DNA from: Burkholderia sp. | GTDB taxonomy: Bacteria; Pseudomonadota; Gammaproteobacteria; Burkholderiales; Burkholderiaceae | DNA: 64,000 bases | Direction of reading: 5' to 3' | Assembly: GCA_032470195.1 (NCBI GenBank) | Contig: JAVHYX010000002.1 | Coordinates: 263,625-327,624 of the forward strand | Shown here: positions 9,750-52,869 of the stretch, in pieces | Layout of the letters: each line of letters opens with the position of its first letter | Numbering within the stretch: position 1 is the first letter of the stretch | Position numbers and translations under genes: made by a program | The notes under the pieces: model-generated | Told to the model about the DNA's origin: nothing | Seen by the model: the letters and a program-made list of their open reading frames with translations, nothing else | Database searches by the model: none

Positions 9750-10270
9750 AAAATATATTCATTTTTAAATCAAAATTAATATATCCGCCACATTCTATAC
9801 CAAAGTCTAGATTCTAGTCTGGTAAAACAAATCCATGCGCATGCCATTCAGTTCAGGATAGTACTCAGATCGATGAACGTGTCTGTTGGTCATTATACTT
9901 GCCTTACTTCTATTAAAAAGTTTAGCAACTTCTGAACAAGTTACATCGTATTTTATCAAGTGATGTATCACGTCTTGCACAAGAGATACGTATAAAGTCT
10001 CCGAGTAGGAAATATCTATCTCCTGATATGATATAGAGCGGTATTTCTCACTTTGCTAGAGTACTTAGTAATACCGCTATGCGAGCGACTAGTGGATCAA
10101 TATCTAATATATTGTCGCCAACCCCATCTTCAAAAAGATCGCCTAGAATAAATACCGGATCTAGTATTATATGCAGTATGTCGAATAAAATTCTCGAATT
10201 CTGATGCTGTTTTCGGTATGGCGATACTCAGATGTAGATCAGATAAAATAATAAAGAATATCTTGTCTTG
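9750..10270 (-). pseudogene. lpxH: UDP-2,3-diacylglucosamine hydrolase pseudogene (frameshifts, stops, internal deletion)
   Basis: Minus-strand fragments in the correct order: ILSDLHLSIAIPKT (SDLHLS at 10226-10243), VFILGDLFE, IPLYIISGDRYFLLG, KYDVT..VAKLF and FVLPD*NLD..GGY. Canonical position after cysE. Confidence 0.9.
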
Positions 10271-12558: not shown

Positions 12559-13545
12559 ATGAAGATCACATTCCTAGATTTTGAACGATCTATTACGAAA
12601 CTCGAAAAAAAAATAGATGAACTACGATGTATTCATGAAAAATCAGAAATCGATATTTCAGATGAAATAGAGCAGCTATCTCGGAAGAGTAGTCAGCTAA
12701 TAAAAAATCTATATAAGAATTTGACACCGTGGCAAGTTACAAAGATTGCTAGGCATCCACAGCGTCCATATATGCTCGATTACATTAGAGCATTATTTAC
12801 AGATTTTAATGAACTGCATGGGGATCGTACGTTTGCCGACGATGCATCTATTGTTGGCGGACTTGCGAGGTTTGATGGCAATCCGTGCATGGTTATTGGC
12901 CATCAAAAAGGCCGTGACACGAAAGAGCGTATAATACGAAATTTCGGTATGCCACGTCCAGAAGGTTACAGGAAGGCTAGGCGCCTGATGCAGCTCGCGG
13001 AAAAGTTTAGACTGCCAATTTTTACATTTATAGATACACCAGGCGCCTATCCAGGTATTGGTGCAGAGGAGCGTAATCAGTCAGTAGCGATTGGAGAAAA
13101 TCTATATGTGATGTCGAAATTGAAAACGCCAATTATTGCTACAGTAATCGGCGAAGGTGGATCTGGAGGTGCACTAGCAATCGCTGTTGCAGATATAGTG
13201 ATGATGTTAGAGTTCTCTATTTATTCCGTAATTTCTCCAGAAGGCTGCGCATCTATCCTGTGGAAGAGATCAGAAAAGGCGAAAGAAGCAGCTGAAGCTC
13301 TTAGGCTAACCGCAAATCATCTGAAAATGCTTAAACTGATCGATAAGATCATTAACGAGCCTATTGGAGGCGCACATCGCAATCCCAATGCCATGGCTGC
13401 GATACTACGTACGGCGCTCAATGATTCACTGCATCAGATCCAGGAAATAAAAATTGATTCGCTATGCAATCGTAGAATTGATCGTCTTATGGCACATGGT
13501 AGATTTAAGGAAATCGTGTTAGAAACTAATATAGAGGGCTCTTGA
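12559..13545 (+). CDS. accA: Acetyl-CoA carboxylase carboxyltransferase alpha subunit
   Basis: Motifs [28 protein letters not shown] and [10 protein letters not shown]. Confidence 0.99.
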
Positions 13546-20144: not shown

Positions 20145-20247
20145 CTGTGTATATAACTTAGCTATAATTAGCAATGTTATTAGTAATTAATATTTGTGCT
20201 TGAGATTTTATTTAACTTTTCTAATCCAATTTATTTCATTCAGCAAT

Positions 20248-20817
20248 ATGAAAAATATGAAAGAAAATTCTTCGACTGAATCGATTAACGACTCTAGCTC
20301 TGATATAAATACAACACAGGATGCTCAGGATATTTCTTCTGAATCAGGTCCTGATAGAACAGAATTTGACGAAATTCAAGAAAAGATCAATGAAATGCAA
20401 GAGAACTATCTGCGAGCAAAGGCAGAGACAGAAAATATACGTCGACGATCTCAGGAAGAGATATCAAAGATAAATAAATTTGCAATTGAAAACCTTGCAA
20501 AGCAGCTTTTACCAGCTCTTGACAGTTTAGAAGCTGCAGTGAGTGATACATCTGATAACCTTGCAAAAGTTCGAGAAGGAATAGATCTGACGTTACGCCA
20601 ATTGCAGGACGTACTCCAAAAATTTTGTGTAATACAGCTAAACCCAATTGGCGAGAAATTCGATCCATATTTACATCAGGCAATTTCGACAGTAGAAGTC
20701 AATCAAAAACCTAATACTATTACTACAGTACTCCAAAAAGGATATAAGATTTCAGATCGTGTGCTTCGTCCCGCACTTGTAATTGTAGCTAAAAGTGCAG
20801 AGACTGAGAAATCATAG
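20248..20817 (+). CDS. grpE: Nucleotide exchange factor GrpE
   Basis: Motifs [22 protein letters not shown] and [19 protein letters not shown] start taken at 20248; the ORF track begins at an upstream TTG. Confidence 0.97.
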
Positions 20818-20911
20818 TAATAATGTATAGTTTAAGCAGTAAAATTAGAATTCTGTTAGGCATTTAAAGCAGATTGTTCTTAAATTGAGGTAATGCATCT
20901 ATCCGTAAGGT

Positions 20912-20939
20912 CTTGAAAATGATCTAGGAGGACTTATCT
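20912..20939 (+). promoter_or_regulatory. Degenerate sigma-32-like promoter upstream of dnaK
   Basis: Perfect -35 CTTGAAA followed by a weak -10 (ACTTATCT) at 14-nt spacing. Confidence 0.3.
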
Positions 20940-21027
20940 CTATTAAGCGTTGAACCGGCTACAAAACTATTTAAAAGATATAAACTATAGTTTTATAGAG
21001 TAAGCAGGGGTTTCTGGAGACTAAGAA

Positions 21028-22983
21028 ATGGGAAAGATCATTGGTATTGACCTCGGTACCACAAATTCATGTGTTGCGGTCATGGAAGGTAGTCAGGTTA
21101 AAGTTATTGAGAATTCAGAAGGTACTCGAACAACACCTTCAATTATTGCATATATAGACGACAACGAAGTACTTGTTGGTGCGCCAGCAAAGCGTCAGTC
21201 TGTCACAAACCCACGCAGTACGTTGTTTGCTGTCAAGCGTCTGATTGGTCGACGCTTCGAAGAGAAAGAGGTACAGAAAGATATTGGCTTAATGCCATAT
21301 AAGATTATGAAAGCCGATAACGGGGATGCATGGATTGAGGTGCGCGGTCAAAAGCTTGCACCACCTCAAATTTCTGCAAAAGTTTTACAGAAAATGAAGA
21401 AGACAGCGGAGGATTATCTTGGTGAGGTTATTACAGAAGCAGTAATTACTGTACCAGCATACTTCAATGATAGTCAGCGTCAGGCAACAAAGGACGCAGG
21501 TAGAATCGCTGGCCTAGAAGTGAAGCGAATTATTAATGAACCAACTGCCGCTGCACTCGCATTTGGTCTTGACAAGGCTGGAAAAGGTGATAGAAAAATT
21601 GCAGTCTATGATCTTGGTGGTGGCACATTTGATGTTTCTATTATCGAGATTGCAGATGTCGATGGTGAAATGCAGTTCGAAGTATTATCAACAAATGGTG
21701 ATACTTTCCTTGGCGGTGAGGACTTTGACCAACGTATAATTGACTATATTATTAACGAGTTCAAAAAAGATCAGGGAGTCGATCTTTCAAAAGATGTTCT
21801 GGCACTACAACGTCTTAAAGAAGCAGCTGAAAAGGCTAAGATTGAACTTTCATCAAGTCAGCAGACCGAAATTAATCTACCGTATATTACCGCTGATGCA
21901 TCCGGTCCTAAACATCTGAGTCTAAAGATTACTCGCGCAAAACTTGAATCTCTTGTTGAAGATCTTATTGAGCGCACAATCAGTCCATGTCAGATAGCGA
22001 TCAAGGATGCTAAAGTCAGTGTCTCAGATATAAATGACGTAATTCTTGTCGGTGGTCAGACGAGAATGCCAAAGGTTCAAGACAAAGTAAAAGAACTATT
22101 TAGTAAGGATCCGAGGCGTGATGTAAATCCGGATGAAGCTGTTGCAGTTGGTGCTGCTATACAAGGTCAGGTGTTATCTGGTGACCGAAAGGATGTACTT
22201 CTTCTTGACGTTACCCCGTTATCATTAGGTATCGAGACGCTCGGTGGCGTAATGACGAAGATGATCAATAAAAATACAACGATTCCAACGAAGCATACGC
22301 AGATATATTCAACTGCGGACGATAATCAGGGTGCTGTAACGATTAAGGTATTTCAGGGTGAACGCGAAATGGCAGCTGGAAACAAGCTGCTTGGCGAATT
22401 TAATCTTGAAGGAATTCCGCCAGCACCACGTGGCGTACCACAAATTGAAGTAACATTTGACATCGATGCGAATGGTATTTTACATGTCCGTGCGAAGGAT
22501 AAAACAACCGGAAAGGAAAATAAAATTACAATTAAGGCAAACTCTGGTTTGTCTGATGCAGAGATTGAAAATATGGTCAAGGATGCAGAAGCAAATATAG
22601 AGGAAGATCAAAAACTTCGACAACTAGCTGAAACTAGAAATCAAGGTGATGCACTTGTACATAGCACTAGGAAAGCAATAGCTCAATATGGAGATAAGCT
22701 GGAAAAAGAAGAAAAAGGAAAAATTGAGACGTTGATAAAAGATGTAGAGGAAGTTTTAAAGGATACGTCATCAGACAAAGCTGCTATTGATTTAAAGATT
22801 GAAGCACTTAACGCTGCTTCACAGAAGCTAAGTGAGAAAATGTATAATGACATACAGGCACACCAGTCTGTTAATAATGGATCGGAGGGAACAGGAGAAT
22901 CTTCTAATAGAAGGGCTGATGGAACAGAAAATCGAGCTGATGGAGTTGTTGATGCTGAGTTTAAGGAAGTAAAAAAAGACTAA
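21028..22983 (+). CDS. dnaK: Chaperone DnaK (Hsp70)
   Basis: Motifs [26 protein letters not shown] and [11 protein letters not shown]; C-terminal DAEFKEV. Confidence 0.99.
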
Positions 22984-23072
22984 AGCTACCCCTATAGGAG
23001 ACTCTATATGATTAAAATTTCCTTTTGGTCTACTCTTAAAAAGAGTAGAAAGATTTCTTAGAAAATAAATCG

Positions 23073-23111
23073 GCCTGGCGGATATAAAAGTCCCGTCAGG
23101 CGTATTTTTTT
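23073..23111 (+). terminator. Intrinsic terminator or attenuator between dnaK and dnaJ
   Basis: gcctggcgg...ccgtcaggc 9-bp stem with one G-U pair, followed by gtattttttt. Confidence 0.75.
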
Positions 23112-36858: not shown

Positions 36859-37395
36859 ATGAGCCTTTCAACGACAATGAGCAACTTCCCTCTTTCCCTG
36901 CGCTGCGAGCGCCGTTTTCTAAGCCTGATTGGTTTTTTTTGTATACTACTTCTAGTAAGTGCACTTTATTTACAATATGTTCAACATGAGGATCCATGTC
37001 CACTCTGTATTCTACAGCGCTATTTCTTTGCATTGATTGCTATCTTTTCCTTTATTGCAACAGGAATGCAGCGCTGGAGGTGGGTCCTATTACTCGAATC
37101 ACTAATTGCACTCTCAGCGATCGCTGGCGGCGGAATTGCAGCCCATCATTTAATAATACAGCTTAATCCAGGATTTAGCTGTAACTTCGATGCTATGGAA
37201 GCACTGGTTGAGCGTCTACCGTTTACCAAATTTTTTCCATGGATATTTGAAGTTAAAGGCGAGGTCGGTTGTGATATGGTCTATCCAGCAATTATTGGAA
37301 TTCCACTTCCAGGCTGGGCGCTGCTTAGCTTTATATTGATCCTAATTACAGTCTTTATTAGTATCTTTCGTCATCGCGGGCAATTTTATAAATAA
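36859..37395 (+). CDS. dsbB: Disulfide bond formation protein B
   Basis: PCPLCILQR motif, second Cys pair (FSCNF...GCD) and four hydrophobic segments. The start may be ATG 36877. Confidence 0.95.
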   Translation: MSLSTTMSNFPLSLRCERRFLSLIGFFCILLLVSALYLQYVQHEDPCPLCILQRYFFALIAIFSFIATGMQRWRWVLLLESLIALSAIAGGGIAAHHLIIQLNPGFSCNFDAMEALVERLPFTKFFPWIFEVKGEVGCDMVYPAIIGIPLPGWALLSFILILITVFISIFRHRGQFYK

Positions 37396-38931: not shown

Positions 38932-40233
38932 TCATTCTACATTTGTCCACTCAATATTTGCTCCTAGAGAACATAAATTTTCGACGAAATGCGGATGCGC
39001 ACGGCGGATTGGTAGTGCATTTATGATTTCTGAACGGCCTTTAATGCTAGCAGCAACCATCAACAGCGCAATTGCAACACGGATAATATATGGACTTTCA
39101 ACGCGTGCAGGTGATAGCTCTAATCCGCCAAATGTGATAAGCCTGTGGGGGTCAGACAGAAAAATATGTGCACCAAACTTCGATAGCTCACCTGTCCATC
39201 CGAGAGCGCCATCGTACACTTTGTTCCAGAACATTGCATTACCTTCTGCTTGTATGCCAAGCGCTATGAAGATAGGTAGGAGGTCAACTGGCACGTACGG
39301 CCAGGGCGCAGCTTCGACCTTCATCAAAATATTTTGAGTAAACGGCTGTCGAACACGTAGTGGACCGTCACGTTCAATATACGACCAGCCATTATTATGA
39401 ACGACATGCACGTTGAATTTTTCAAATGTGCGGTCGATCAATGGGAAATATTCTGGAAATGAATTGCGAACTGCGATAGAGCCACCTGTAATTGCACCAA
39501 GCGCGAGGAATGTTGATATCTCATGAAAATCTTCACAAAAACGAAATTTTCCGCCACCTAGCTTACATCCTCCCGTTATACGGATACGTGATGTACCAAG
39601 ACCTTCAATTATTACACCAAGCATCATGAGGAACTGGCCGAATTCCTGTACATGTGGTTCAGATGCTCCATTAGTTAGCACCGACGTTCCATCTGCGATT
39701 GTCGCACAAAGTATGAAATTCTCAGTTGTCGTTACCGATGCATAGTCCAACCAATGATCATTTGCCTTTAGCAGATTATCTATGCGAATAATAATGGAAT
39801 CTGTCGTGCGTTCTATATCTGCCCCAAAGCGCTTGAATACTTCGATATGTGGATCGACTTCGCGAACGCCTAGTGTGCAGCCTTTTACGTTGCTCTCAAG
39901 ATGAGCAACGCCAAATCTTGCGAGTAGCGCAGGGATCAGCATGATCGAGGAGCGCATTGTTTCTGGTAGCTTATGTATAGCTGGGTTAAACTGTATATTA
40001 ATATGATGTAATTCAAGAATACCGGTATTAAAATTAATTAATACTTCGCTACCAAGCGTACGGAAAATATCAAGTATTTTACTAACATCTGTAATATCTG
40101 GTACACCGATAAGTCGAAGTGGCTGATCAGTTAGAAGAGTCGCGCAAAGAATTGGCAGAACAGCATTCTTATTAGCAGATGGTTGGATGTTGCCGAGAAG
40201 TGGCGTACCACCGTGAACGATGAGATTCGACAC
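38932..40233 (-). CDS. murA: UDP-N-acetylglucosamine 1-carboxyvinyltransferase, divergent MurA paralog
   Basis: Motifs SANKNAVLP, MRSS, KGCTLGVRE.DPH, ASVTTTEN and ASEPHV; GTG start. Confidence 0.9.
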   Translation of the reverse strand: MSNLIVHGGTPLLGNIQPSANKNAVLPILCATLLTDQPLRLIGVPDITDVSKILDIFRTLGSEVLINFNTGILELHHINIQFNPAIHKLPETMRSSIMLIPALLARFGVAHLESNVKGCTLGVREVDPHIEVFKRFGADIERTTDSIIIRIDNLLKANDHWLDYASVTTTENFILCATIADGTSVLTNGASEPHVQEFGQFLMMLGVIIEGLGTSRIRITGGCKLGGGKFRFCEDFHEISTFLALGAITGGSIAVRNSFPEYFPLIDRTFEKFNVHVVHNNGWSYIERDGPLRVRQPFTQNILMKVEAAPWPYVPVDLLPIFIALGIQAEGNAMFWNKVYDGALGWTGELSKFGAHIFLSDPHRLITFGGLELSPARVESPYIIRVAIALLMVAASIKGRSEIINALPIRRAHPHFVENLCSLGANIEWTNVE

Positions 40234-47449: not shown

Positions 47450-48420
47450 TCAAGAATTAATAGTGTATCTTCTATCAAGATAAGTCTTACATCTAAGAAA
47501 GATCTGCTTTGGAAATTAAGGGTATACCCTCTATAACAGTATAAGTACGCTATATTCAAAAATTCTTAATCCTTTACTGGACTATGTAGACTTATTTTAG
47601 TAGATAGCTATTAAGTAAAAGTATATTTTATTCTTTGTGATAGTCTTTAGCTCGTATCGAATTATTTACTAAACTACATATATAAACTAGCTTTTATTTC
47701 AGTTAGGCTTAGAATGTTTAATTGGGATAATTTATGCTTGCTCATCATTTTTCCATCGAATAAATATAAGTACACTATCAATTCAATATTATATTTGAGA
47801 TCGGTCAGATTCTATCTAACTTGACTGATACAATATTTATATTCCTTTTGTGATTTATTAGCTCGCTATTATAGCTTTCCCCTCTACCTGTTCTATTTGA
47901 ACTAGTATATAGAATTTATTGTCTTGATGATTATATATGTTACTATATATTGGTCCTTAATCATTAGTAAGATTAATCATCTACTACGCGATATAAGCGG
48001 TGATTACTAGGTATTAAAGAATAGGTTTATTATCCTGTCGTTGAAAAAGATAGTTAGCAACCATAACGTATGACATTAGACTCTTCATGGAGATAATTAA
48101 AAATCTATGTAGATACACGATTCAGAATCGTATTTAGTCTGGGCTCTTACATAGCCTAACTTATATATTCTTACTTCGATAGTACTCGAGATTGTAATCA
48201 CAGACACTGTCCTAGAATCTCTAAAAGACAAAAACTACGATGATTAATAGCCTTGTGATGTTTATCATACGTCAGTTGATATTTATAATTTCACCGATCA
48301 AACATCTAATTGATATGAATCAGATATTATAATGTTCGACGGTTAGCTGATAAAAATAATTTTTAGACTGATCGCGTTCGACAAAGCCAATCGAGTAAAA
48401 AGAAATGTCATAGATTAGTT
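47450..48420 (+). pseudogene. msbA: Lipid A flippase MsbA pseudogene (membrane domain decayed, ATPase domain not found)
   Basis: Ordered fragments across frames: ILNPLLD, RLRMFN, FFHR, INSI.FEIGQILSNLT, YLFYLN* (47885-47905), SKINHLLR and ISPIKHLIDMNQ (from 48288). Located downstream of dnaE as recalled for Burkholderia. Confidence 0.88.
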
Positions 48421-49817: not shown

Positions 49818-50874
49818 ACAGTAAGTAGGAGTAGTAGAAATAGGATCCTTAATAGGACGGGATATAGAAGGTATAGCGCGATAGACAAGTAAGGAAAAGG
49901 AAATTCAATCCGTCTGCATTGTCTTAATAAGCCGTGAAGAAGTATTAAGTTTCTCTATTCCTTTGCGTTAAACTACTGCGCAGATCTAATAAGACAGTAT
50001 GTCAACGAAGGATATATTTTCATATTGTTGTTCTCAACAGCTCTATCACACGTAGAAATAATAACGTTAAATACTACGTATCAGACAATTCAGATAATAA
50101 TAAAAACTTTAGTCGATCAGCAGTCGACATATCTTTGATCTAAAAATCAATAATTTTTTGTTAATCCCCTCCTAGAGGTAGGAGGTTTGAAATATAGATA
50201 GACGTCTGAAGTACTATTATGATACAGACAGAGATAATTCTTTTTTTCTAATAGGGTCAAATATTTTAAGTAAAATTTAGAGAAATCATCGATTTGTTTG
50301 ATATTTTCTCCTTATAGTTAATATAAGATGGAACATCCATCATGAAAAATTTTACAATACATCTATTTATAATAAGGTAAGGAAAAGCAACTAAATCAGA
50401 AGATGAACTGTATAAAATTTACGAGTAATGAAACTAGAACTAGAATTTGGTATTCCAAGAGTGTATTATACACTATAATATAACTCAACTTTTCTGTTGT
50501 TATAATAAGAGGCTATACGAAGACGAAGAAATTGAGAATTCCGTATCAGGAATTAGTTATTATATTAATAATTAATAAAATAATTGATTTCTTAGATTAG
50601 AGTAATATACTCCAAGTAGCTCAATGTTATGAGTTAAAAAATTTTTTAAAAAAAATTTATATAAGTAATTGTGTTTATATTATTCTCGTTACTTTAAAAT
50701 ATTCTTTTATTTAAAAAGGCTGAGTTAAAGGGGAATCATAAATTTAATTTTCCTATCATATAATTGATGATAATTCTCTGAATATAGATGATAAGTTCGT
50801 TGAACTATTCCGAATAGTTTCATCATTAAAACAAGATCATAAAGATCTTCCTCTTTTTCGAAGGAAATCCTTAA

Positions 50875-51966
50875 ATGAATAAAACTATTATCCTTGCAGC
50901 TGCTGCAGCAGCATTTACTACTGCAGCTTATGCACAAGATATGCAAAATGCAAAAAGCAGTCTTGCCTTATATGGAATTCTCGATACTGCTGTTACTTAC
51001 AGAACCAATATCAATAATAATCAGGAATGGGTGATCCGTAGTGGTATTACCCAGAGTAATTTTGGATTACGCGGCGTAGAAAATATAGGCAATGGCTTAA
51101 AGGCAATATTTCTCTTGGAAAGCGGATTAAATATTTCTAATGGGAAGGTTGATGATACTAATCACTCCTCATTTAATCGTGAAGCATATGTTGGTTTATC
51201 AAGCAATGCTGGAACATTATTAGTAGGTCGTCAGCACGGTTCAATACAAGATTATCTATCGCCTATTTCATCAACAGGAAGCTGGGGTGGAATGCACTTT
51301 TCACATATAAAAAATAGAGATTTTCTTTTTAAGAGCGCTAGCATCTTATTAGATAACACTGTAAAATTTACAAGTCGTGATTATAGTGGATTGAGATTCG
51401 GCGCTACATATTCTTTCCCTAATAGAGAATCTGAGAAAAAAACTTCATACAGTGCCGGCGTTTCTTACCAATGTCAAGATCTACGTCTTGCCGCTTCATA
51501 TATAAAACTAGATAGAAAAGAAGATAAAGATAATAGTGCTCTTAATGGTTACATCTATGGTGTAGGTACAACCTATAATCTGGGCATAGGAAGGATCGGT
51601 GCTTTATGGACACAATCTTTTAAAGACTTACCTAACAATTCTCTAGGATATAAACGTTTAGATACCTATGAAGTTAATGCACGGTATAATCTGTCTCCAG
51701 ATCTTGCTGTCAGTGCGAGTTATAGCTATATGCATTTGACGAGAGAAAAAGGTAATAATCCTTCATCTTGGAACCAAGTTGGTGTACAAACTGATTATAT
51801 GCTGTCTAAACGTACTGGATTATACGCTCAGGTACAGTACCAGAATTTAAATAAAGAATCAAAAAGTACATCTTTCATTTACGAAGACTATGATGGTTTA
51901 TCAAAAATTGAAGGAATGAATAAGAATAATTTCTTAGCAGCATTTGGTATACGTCATAGTTTTTAA
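50875..51966 (+). CDS. Gram-negative trimeric porin (Burkholderia OpcP/Omp38-like)
   Basis: Signal peptide MNKTIILAAAAAAFTTAAYA; motifs LYGILD, FGLRGVE, FNREAYVGL and DYMLSKRT; C-terminal GIRHSF. Confidence 0.93.
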   Translation: MNKTIILAAAAAAFTTAAYAQDMQNAKSSLALYGILDTAVTYRTNINNNQEWVIRSGITQSNFGLRGVENIGNGLKAIFLLESGLNISNGKVDDTNHSSFNREAYVGLSSNAGTLLVGRQHGSIQDYLSPISSTGSWGGMHFSHIKNRDFLFKSASILLDNTVKFTSRDYSGLRFGATYSFPNRESEKKTSYSAGVSYQCQDLRLAASYIKLDRKEDKDNSALNGYIYGVGTTYNLGIGRIGALWTQSFKDLPNNSLGYKRLDTYEVNARYNLSPDLAVSASYSYMHLTREKGNNPSSWNQVGVQTDYMLSKRTGLYAQVQYQNLNKESKSTSFIYEDYDGLSKIEGMNKNNFLAAFGIRHSF

Positions 51967-52224
51967 GAGATTTTTATTTGGTTCGTTTACATGAGGATTA
52001 AGCTACCAGTTAACCCATATTAACCTCCTTTAAACATGCTAAAAGTTTGTATGGTCGGTTGCTTTTTCCTCTATCAATGATTTTTCTATTGAGTAGTAAT
52101 AGGATATTATGAATATATAGCGGAAATTAATTAGCCTTCAACGATAATTAGTTTGTCGGCATAAGATACAATCATCGACCAGTTAGGTCGCGTCCATTTA
52201 CTTAATTTTTTGTTTGGTTTTATA

Positions 52225-52869
52225 ATGTCTTCGCGCTTTCGATTGCTGCACGCAGACGCAGACACAATCCCAGTTGACAAGTCTGTTGCATTTGTTGCAA
52301 CAGCAAATCTACCTACGCGATACGGACAATTTTCTTCTCATGCATTTCGCATGTCTAATAATAATGAAGAACATCTTGCTCTTGTTATCGGTGATGTGAC
52401 TGGTGGGTCTCCTGTGCTTACACGCCTGCATTCTGAATGTCTTACAGGTGATGTATTTGGTTCTTATAGATGTGATTGTGGCGAGCAGCTTGATCTTGCT
52501 CTACGTTATATTTCGAAAGAAAAACGTGGTATACTTCTATATCTTCGCGGTCATGAGGGTCGTGGAATCGGGCTAACTAATAAGATTTCAGCTTATGCAT
52601 TTCAGGAACAGGGACGTGATACTGTTGAAGCAAATCTTGATCTTGGTTTACCTGACGATGCACGTGAATACAGTTCAGCTGCCTTAATACTGAAACAGCT
52701 TGGTGTAACATCTGTTCGGCTAATGAGTAATAATCCTAAAAAGTTTGATGCTCTTGAGCAGTATGGTATTTCAGTGTCTGAACGAGTTACATTATCCGTA
52801 CCAGTCAGGGAGGAAAATAAGCGATATATTAAGACCAAACAGCTGAAATTTGGTCATTATGATGTTTAA
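52225..52869 (+). CDS. ribA: GTP cyclohydrolase II
   Basis: Motifs [23 protein letters not shown] (Zn ligands), EGRGIGL and [12 protein letters not shown] at 52225. Confidence 0.97.

Follow-up and report, generated by a model that had tools for sequence, protein, structure and literature searches.

An intact porin gene lies at positions 50875-51966 (+) of the window, by which we mean the whole 64,000-nucleotide stretch of DNA analysed here (C2:263625-327624 of its assembly). The gene starts with ATG and encodes 363 amino acids ending in ...GIRHSF. A Shine-Dalgarno-like AAGGA at 50861-50865 (+), 9 nt 5' of the ATG, is kept in the sister symbiont introduced below. Further upstream, a block at 50717-50771 (+) is conserved in both symbionts and carries TATAAT at 50759-50764. 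This block is a putative promoter; when the DNA 5' of the porin was scanned for sigma-70 promoters, it scored no better than shuffled sequence. The first 20 residues (50875-50934, +) are predicted to form a Sec-like signal peptide, MNKTIILAAAAAAFTTAAYA followed by Q, and the predicted cleavage between AYA and Q aligns with that between AHA and Q in 59 homologues. Directly 3' of the porin gene stands ribA (GTP cyclohydrolase II; 52210-52869, +).

The protein matched the Pfam family Porin_4 (PF13609) at 6.6e-44 and 151.4 bits (cut-off 27) over profile positions 2-308 of 310, and Porin_1 at 2.9e-13. Its closest solved structure is Burkholderia pseudomallei Omp38 (PDB 8WV0/8JTO, E 1.7e-76), and its best named matches are Omp38 and a B. 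mayonis porin, both at 44% identity. The AlphaFold2 model (61 homologues; pLDDT 85.6, pTM 0.83) had 16 strands and a long loop L3, and in a Foldseek search its best matches were BpsOmp38 (8WV0, TM 0.83/0.91) and Omp32. An inward-folded L3 within a 16-stranded barrel is thus predicted. According to the secondary structure of the model, this constriction loop spans residues 121-158 (51235-51348, +) and includes a conserved DYLSP..GSWGG stretch. BpsOmp38 and the symbiont porin are 43-44% identical along the entire mature chain, and they are alike in the predicted barrel, the L3 sequence and the C-terminal ...GLRH.F. In the alignment, the signal peptide, the conserved strand sequences and the terminal Phe, a recognition signal for BAM, are all intact. 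The description of an intact porin in the earlier note is therefore borne out by the reading frame, the Porin_4 match and the alignment. The ribA gene also adjoins the porin at the locus of its best free-living match, in B. seminalis, and this microsynteny supports orthology. Judged from sequence, the gene is best assigned as the orthologue of Omp38, in preference to the other Burkholderia paralogues (roughly 44 in all).

The assembly that contains the window has 874,232 bp in three scaffolds, with 37.4% GC and 4,000 N included. Since its length without the N, its GC content and its scaffold count equal those given for the symbiont of Gossyparia spuria (870,232 bp, 37.4% GC, three scaffolds; PMC10689751), the source matches 'Ca. 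Burkholderia endosymbiotica', the intracellular Burkholderia symbiont of this eriococcid scale insect (Michalik et al. 2023, PMC10689751). Electron microscopy in that paper showed two bacterial membranes and a symbiosome membrane; its account covers nutrition and mentions neither LPS nor porins nor the envelope. The sister genome is that of the Acanthococcus aceris symbiont (GCA_032470235.1), which is gapless and totals 866,825 bp in three contigs, as PMC10689751 gives, and a free-living Burkholderia of 6.5 Mb served as the positive control. Where the assembly of the G. spuria symbiont has its four gaps, the sister genome has only 68-970 bp, so no gene cluster is concealed in them. Across 620 orthologue pairs between the two symbionts, the medians were 80.6% amino acid identity, dN 0.111, dS 0.754 and omega 0.146.

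For the porin, the same comparison gave 63.7% identity, dN 0.236, dS 0.696 and omega 0.34, which ranked it 11th of the 620 pairs by dN and 13th by omega. It evolves fast, under a constraint that is weaker than in most genes, yet clearly present. We partitioned omega along strand and loop borders taken from the predicted model, each value being a pairwise estimate from two taxa. Strands and periplasmic turns had an omega of 0.25 (bootstrap 95% CI 0.16-0.39), and the constriction loop L3 had the lowest of any major part, 0.15 (CI 0.06-0.48). The seven other, surface loops had an omega of 1.02 (CI 0.50-2.14) and were 37% identical between the symbionts; these outer loops differed from the remainder of the porin with a Fisher p of 3.6e-5. 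Purifying selection acts on the barrel and on L3, and the surface loops drift neutrally. The contrast between loops and strands, which the earlier note had suggested examining by dN/dS, is real, and with two taxa only it points to relaxed constraint, not positive selection.

As had been claimed, the loops are rich in Lys, Asn, Glu and Asp: the four residues make up 36% of the predicted loops, versus 16% of the strands and 25% of the loops of B. pseudomallei Omp38. Lys accounts for 10.8% in the symbiont porin and 1.8% in Omp38, and Glu for 6.3% and 0.9%, respectively; both residues, with Asp, set the symbiont loops apart from those of BpsOmp38. On the other hand, Gly, Ala, Arg and Pro, with their GC-rich codons, fell from 33% to 16%, so that much of the loop change tracks the AT bias of the genome. 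In the alignment with Omp38, L1 was shortened from about 9 to 2 residues and L5 by about 24 residues. The earlier claim of remodelled loops is therefore not supported in that form: L1 and L5 are shortened, and the rest is neutral drift under AT bias, with no sign of adaptation. A third difference from BpsOmp38 is the six-residue DMQNAK at the mature N-terminus (residues 22-27; 50938-50955, +), which follows the conserved AQ of the cleavage site. The extra residues noticed earlier are a true insertion specific to the symbiont clade, found in the two symbionts only (DLQNAK in the sister, 5 of 6 residues identical) and missing in the other 59 of the 61 aligned homologues. Its omega between the symbionts was 0.10, a value from 6 codons only.

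The high ranks by dN and omega, an identity of 63.7% against a median of 80.6%, and an outer-loop omega near 1 would also fit a porin that is decaying under relaxed selection, a leftover whose frame is intact for lack of time, like lpxA in this genome (see below). Nevertheless, the porin is intact in both symbionts after a dS of about 0.7, and omega in the barrel (0.25) and in L3 (0.15) is far under 1. The signal peptide, the C-terminal Phe and the Shine-Dalgarno sequence are conserved as well. The gene is also the sole survivor of some 44 paralogues and stands at a level like that of dnaK in the RNA-type runs described next. This reading is largely refuted, and we regard it as very improbable.

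The Porin_4 profile had 44 matches in the free-living Burkholderia versus 1 in each symbiont. Among the conserved ORF pairs of the two symbionts (n=623), only BamA and the porin combine a signal peptide, a terminal Phe and a barrel family. The symbiont also encodes a secreted OmpA-family protein (C3:73556-74422, +) with a C-terminal peptidoglycan-binding domain and an N-terminal half of proline-rich DLESPVEASPPP repeats; a barrel domain was not detected in it, and a clean reciprocal match was missing among the sister ORFs.

Four sequencing runs from 2019, probably RNA, contained contigs that match this genome with 99% identity or more. Over the roughly 35 kb compared, nearly all contigs lay on the porin, on the adjoining ribA/znuB edge or on the grpE-dnaK region, and ribA appeared together with the porin. 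The patchy contig cover is a pattern of transcripts, unlike that of genomic DNA. Word depth for the porin was about that for dnaK, with the reservation that the RNA status of the runs is a guess from the index and that contig depth is a poor gauge of expression. The fabZ-lpxA-lpxB locus had zero contigs in these four probable RNA runs. Together with the ORF at 20194-20817 and dnaK (window 20194-23075), the porin was the most visible symbiont transcript in the window, and most other genes had no contig. The visibility of the porin in the RNA-type runs agrees with Buchnera, in which OmpF is among the most abundant proteins (PMC3246468). Purifying selection on the barrel and L3, the retention of only one of about 44 paralogues and the presence in probable RNA runs all argue for a functional porin, as the earlier note had assumed.

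We took inventory of the LPS genes with E. coli K-12 reference proteins, which were used to find Burkholderia orthologues in the free-living control; both sets were then searched against both symbionts, and profile models that read through stop codons were run on both symbiont genomes. The E. coli queries missed LptC, LptE and LolB even in the free-living control, and LptC, rerun with the Burkholderia protein, was negative. For lpxC there were zero profile matches, and a C-terminal remnant of 40 amino acids lay beside ftsZ. The gene lpxD was left as fragments in three frames with seven stops, lpxB as four fragments and lpxK as a 55-residue remnant. Within the window, the lpxH remnant (9769-10255, -) consisted of four fragments in several frames at its ancestral place beside cysS. 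The msbA remnant (47628-48329, +) kept only part of the membrane domain (residues 114-348), was broken by stops and a frameshift, and had no ATPase domain; it was found by tblastn of Burkholderia MsbA against a local 1.7-kb stretch (E 6.7e-12) and missed both by E. coli MsbA and by whole-genome tblastn. The report that lpxH and msbA are dead was thus correct. There was no match in this genome to waaA, waaC, kdsB/C/D or lptA/B/C/D/F/G, each of which was found in the free-living control, and the usual site of lptE, between leuS and holA, measured only 387 bp, which leaves no room for the gene.

The sister symbiont had lost the same LPS genes. In addition, its lpxA (C2:230087-230803) was a pseudogene with four stops, even the fragments of lpxD had disappeared, and a 34-residue trace of lptD remained upstream of surA. 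By gene content, the lipid A (Raetz) pathway is therefore non-functional, and Kdo synthesis and transfer and LPS export through MsbA and Lpt are dead or deleted. The loss predates the split of the two symbiont lineages and is still under way. Judged from this gene content, the outer membrane would be free of LPS. The inference of an LPS-free envelope in the earlier note is in this sense upheld by the genome-wide inventory, the sister genome and the free-living positive control, and a complete alternative LPS pathway elsewhere in the genome, which would have spoken against it, was not found in that inventory.

Two retained genes poorly fit a fully dead pathway, which does not account for their retention. 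The gene lpxA is intact in the G. spuria symbiont, outside the window (C2:235586-236377, +; 316 bits, cut-off 231), and the ten residues that we checked as catalytically important in LpxA are all conserved. The gene kdsA is kept in both symbionts under purifying selection (omega 0.18). In both, pyrG and kdsA share one open frame, which runs to 838 amino acids with no stop between them (C1:105504-108020, -; sister C1:101997-104507). A role for KdsA as a stand-in for DAHP synthase was ruled out, as an aroF/G-type gene is present. The state of the two genes would suit a symbiont that still makes a lipid A-like or Kdo glycolipid, with host-encoded or non-homologous enzymes completing the route. 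By contrast, the gene for the committed step (lpxC) and those for five others are fragmentary or absent in two genomes, the flippase MsbA and, as far as tested, the Lpt bridge are lost in both symbionts, and lpxA is a pseudogene in the sister. Moreover, kdsA is left without KdsD, the source of its substrate, and without KdsB and WaaA, which would consume its product. We therefore consider a surviving glycolipid of this kind improbable.

The outer membrane and the machinery that inserts proteins into it persist in the symbiont. Genes for BamA, BamD and BamE, Skp, SurA, DegP, SecA, LolCDE, a LolA-like protein, Lnt and a BON-domain lipoprotein are intact, as is the peptidoglycan set (mur/fts/mrd/mre). 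Tol-Pal, rseP and rpoN are gone from the symbiont genome. An inventory of lpx, kds, lpt, bam, lol and mla genes had been proposed earlier, and it separates eroded LPS sets from BamA/D/E, lolCDE and mla, which are kept. Three window genes said to be alive are indeed intact: dsbB (36859-37395, +; Pfam DsbB 5.1e-33, omega 0.14 against the sister), accA (12559-13545, +) and a gene for a MurA-type enolpyruvyl transferase (38932-40233, -; omega 0.115), which is the sole murA-like gene besides aroA.

We also examined how the membranes could be supplied with lipid. Profiles for PlsB/PlsC-type acyltransferases (PF01553), PlsY (PF02660) and the phosphatidylserine decarboxylase Psd (PF02666) were negative in both symbionts and positive in the free-living control, and plsX was absent beside fabH. 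Type II fatty-acid synthesis, cdsA and pgsA are kept in the G. spuria symbiont. In the sister, pgsA (C2:80975-81561) is split by a frameshift into two halves of 73-81% identity, which may mean that the gene was inactivated recently, that slippage occurs at this site or that the sequence is wrong there. Neither symbiont had a functional TamB, AsmA or YhdP by profile, the control being positive, and a TamB remnant with three stops was seen in the sister. The squalene-hopene cyclase gene (shc; C1:61363-62344, -) has decayed to fragments with numerous stops in the G. spuria symbiont and is intact in the sister as a 649-residue frame (436 bits, C1:59036-60007), so only the A. aceris symbiont may be able to make hopanoids.

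Because PlsB/C/X/Y and Psd are missing, the symbiont membranes probably consist largely of host lipid and not of lipid that the symbiont makes itself; as these are HMM and BLAST negatives, non-homologous replacements or host-encoded enzymes are compatible with them too. Host lipid supply has been proposed for more reduced symbionts (PMC11020763). The phospholipid-only envelope described in the earlier note is consequently doubtful as something of the bacterium's own making. What our analysis adds to that note is the absence of PlsB/C/X/Y, Psd, TamB, AsmA and YhdP while Mla is conserved. The mla operon is complete (C1:152872-156950), with mlaF, E, D, C, mlaA and an STAS-type frame for MlaB, and omega ranges from 0.11 to 0.24 across its genes and from 0.11 to 0.15 for MlaF/E/D. 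Of the lipid conduits searched for, only Mla can still be recognised.

The conservation of Mla raises a further account of the porin, namely that it is kept mainly as the outer-membrane partner of MlaA, with host phospholipid moving from the outer to the inner membrane. In enterobacteria, MlaA sits on trimers of the OmpF/OmpC type, and the TGD system of chloroplasts is a homologue of Mla that imports lipid. All components (MlaF/E/D/C, MlaA and the MlaB-like STAS frame) are kept, and MlaF/E/D are under the strong constraint given above. The other lipid routes searched (TamB, AsmA, YhdP and Lpt) and PlsB/C/X/Y and Psd are gone, CdsA and PgsA, the users of phosphatidic acid, remain, and PDB 5NUP was among the Foldseek matches of the porin model. 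Nevertheless, contact between MlaA and a porin of the Burkholderia type is purely hypothetical. The strongest constraint in the porin acts on L3 (omega 0.15), as would suit a channel, and the channel and MlaA roles are compatible. We regard such a TGD-like partnership as the main reason for retention as possible, though rather unlikely. Equally tentative is a broader proposal, of a diderm without LPS, glycerophospholipids of its own or AsmA-like bridges, in which Mla, possibly docked on the porin, would be the main conduit importing host lipid, as TGD does in chloroplasts. If it were true, it would mark an early stage of organelle-like integration, in a symbiosis so recent that its pseudogenes can still be seen.

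Overall, the best explanation, and in our judgement a likely one, is that the symbiont of G. spuria has kept a sole general-diffusion porin in an outer membrane that lacks LPS. The porin would be a 16-stranded barrel, presumably trimeric, and is predicted to act as a non-specific channel. It would be exported by Sec, chaperoned by SurA, Skp and DegP, and inserted by BamA/D/E into an outer membrane without LPS. Purifying selection on the barrel and L3 fits a porin through which, as we infer, amino acids, vitamins and precursors have their sole passive way across the outer membrane. Its surface loops would no longer meet LPS, phages or the extracellular environment, and would therefore have shrunk (L1 and L5) and drifted neutrally under AT bias. 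The symbiont membranes are probably built largely from host lipid, the symbiont's own enzymes for phosphatidic acid and phosphatidylethanolamine, its hopanoids, TamB, AsmA and YhdP being missing.

Several known systems bear on this explanation. BpsOmp38, the closest structural relative, differs from the symbiont porin in the sequence features given above and in that the symbiont porin would reside in a membrane without LPS. LPS-null lpxA mutants of Neisseria meningitidis, a betaproteobacterium, assemble porins of the Porin_4 family in an outer membrane without lipid A. These are laboratory mutants, derived from a free-living pathogen with phospholipid synthesis of its own, whereas the loss in the symbionts is natural and fixed in two species. 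Buchnera aphidicola has an incomplete LPS pathway and no LptD/E, keeps BamA, and has an OmpF-like general porin as its sole, very abundant outer-membrane channel (Charles et al. 2011, PMC3246468). This bears out the statement that LPS loss has precedent in insect symbionts. Like Buchnera, the Burkholderia symbiont is an obligate intracellular insect symbiont with a single porin, whose transcripts are readily seen, and with BamA kept. The two differ in bacterial class and in porin family, the enterobacterial Porin_1 versus Porin_4 here. The Burkholderia association is also much younger, with pseudogene fragments visible and with peptidoglycan synthesis, Mla and Lol still complete. Candidatus Vallotia and Profftia of adelgids are likewise reduced (about 1.1 Mb, about 37% GC), Burkholderiaceae-related insect endosymbionts (PMC8692619); most LPS genes are kept there, and they are lost in the eriococcid Burkholderia.

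The pattern of the Buchnera type is thus known already, and ours is an independent, younger case and the first to be documented in Burkholderia. It adds a gene-level account of envelope erosion to a genome paper devoted to nutrition only (PMC10689751), and an end state without LPS, with one porin and with BAM kept has been reached independently while the pseudogenes are still readable. The leftovers differ between the sisters, lpxA being found in the G. spuria symbiont and the hopanoid cyclase in the A. aceris symbiont. With the Pls enzymes and the AsmA-like proteins searched for missing and Mla conserved, the pair is a natural system in which to ask which way Mla moves lipid and whether it suffices, and how young endosymbionts come to depend on lipids of the host. 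As a protein, the porin is unremarkable; it is a candidate for the one gate through which every nutrient exchanged with the host would pass.

The earlier note had further suggested that loss of LPS could help the symbiont to avoid host immune detection. Among bacterial signals, insects sense mainly peptidoglycan, and the symbiont keeps the full peptidoglycan pathway, so that immune evasion through LPS loss is weak a priori. Within the retained pathway, the MurA-like protein encoded at 38932-40233 (-) shares only 32% identity with E. coli MurA despite its strong conservation between the two symbionts.
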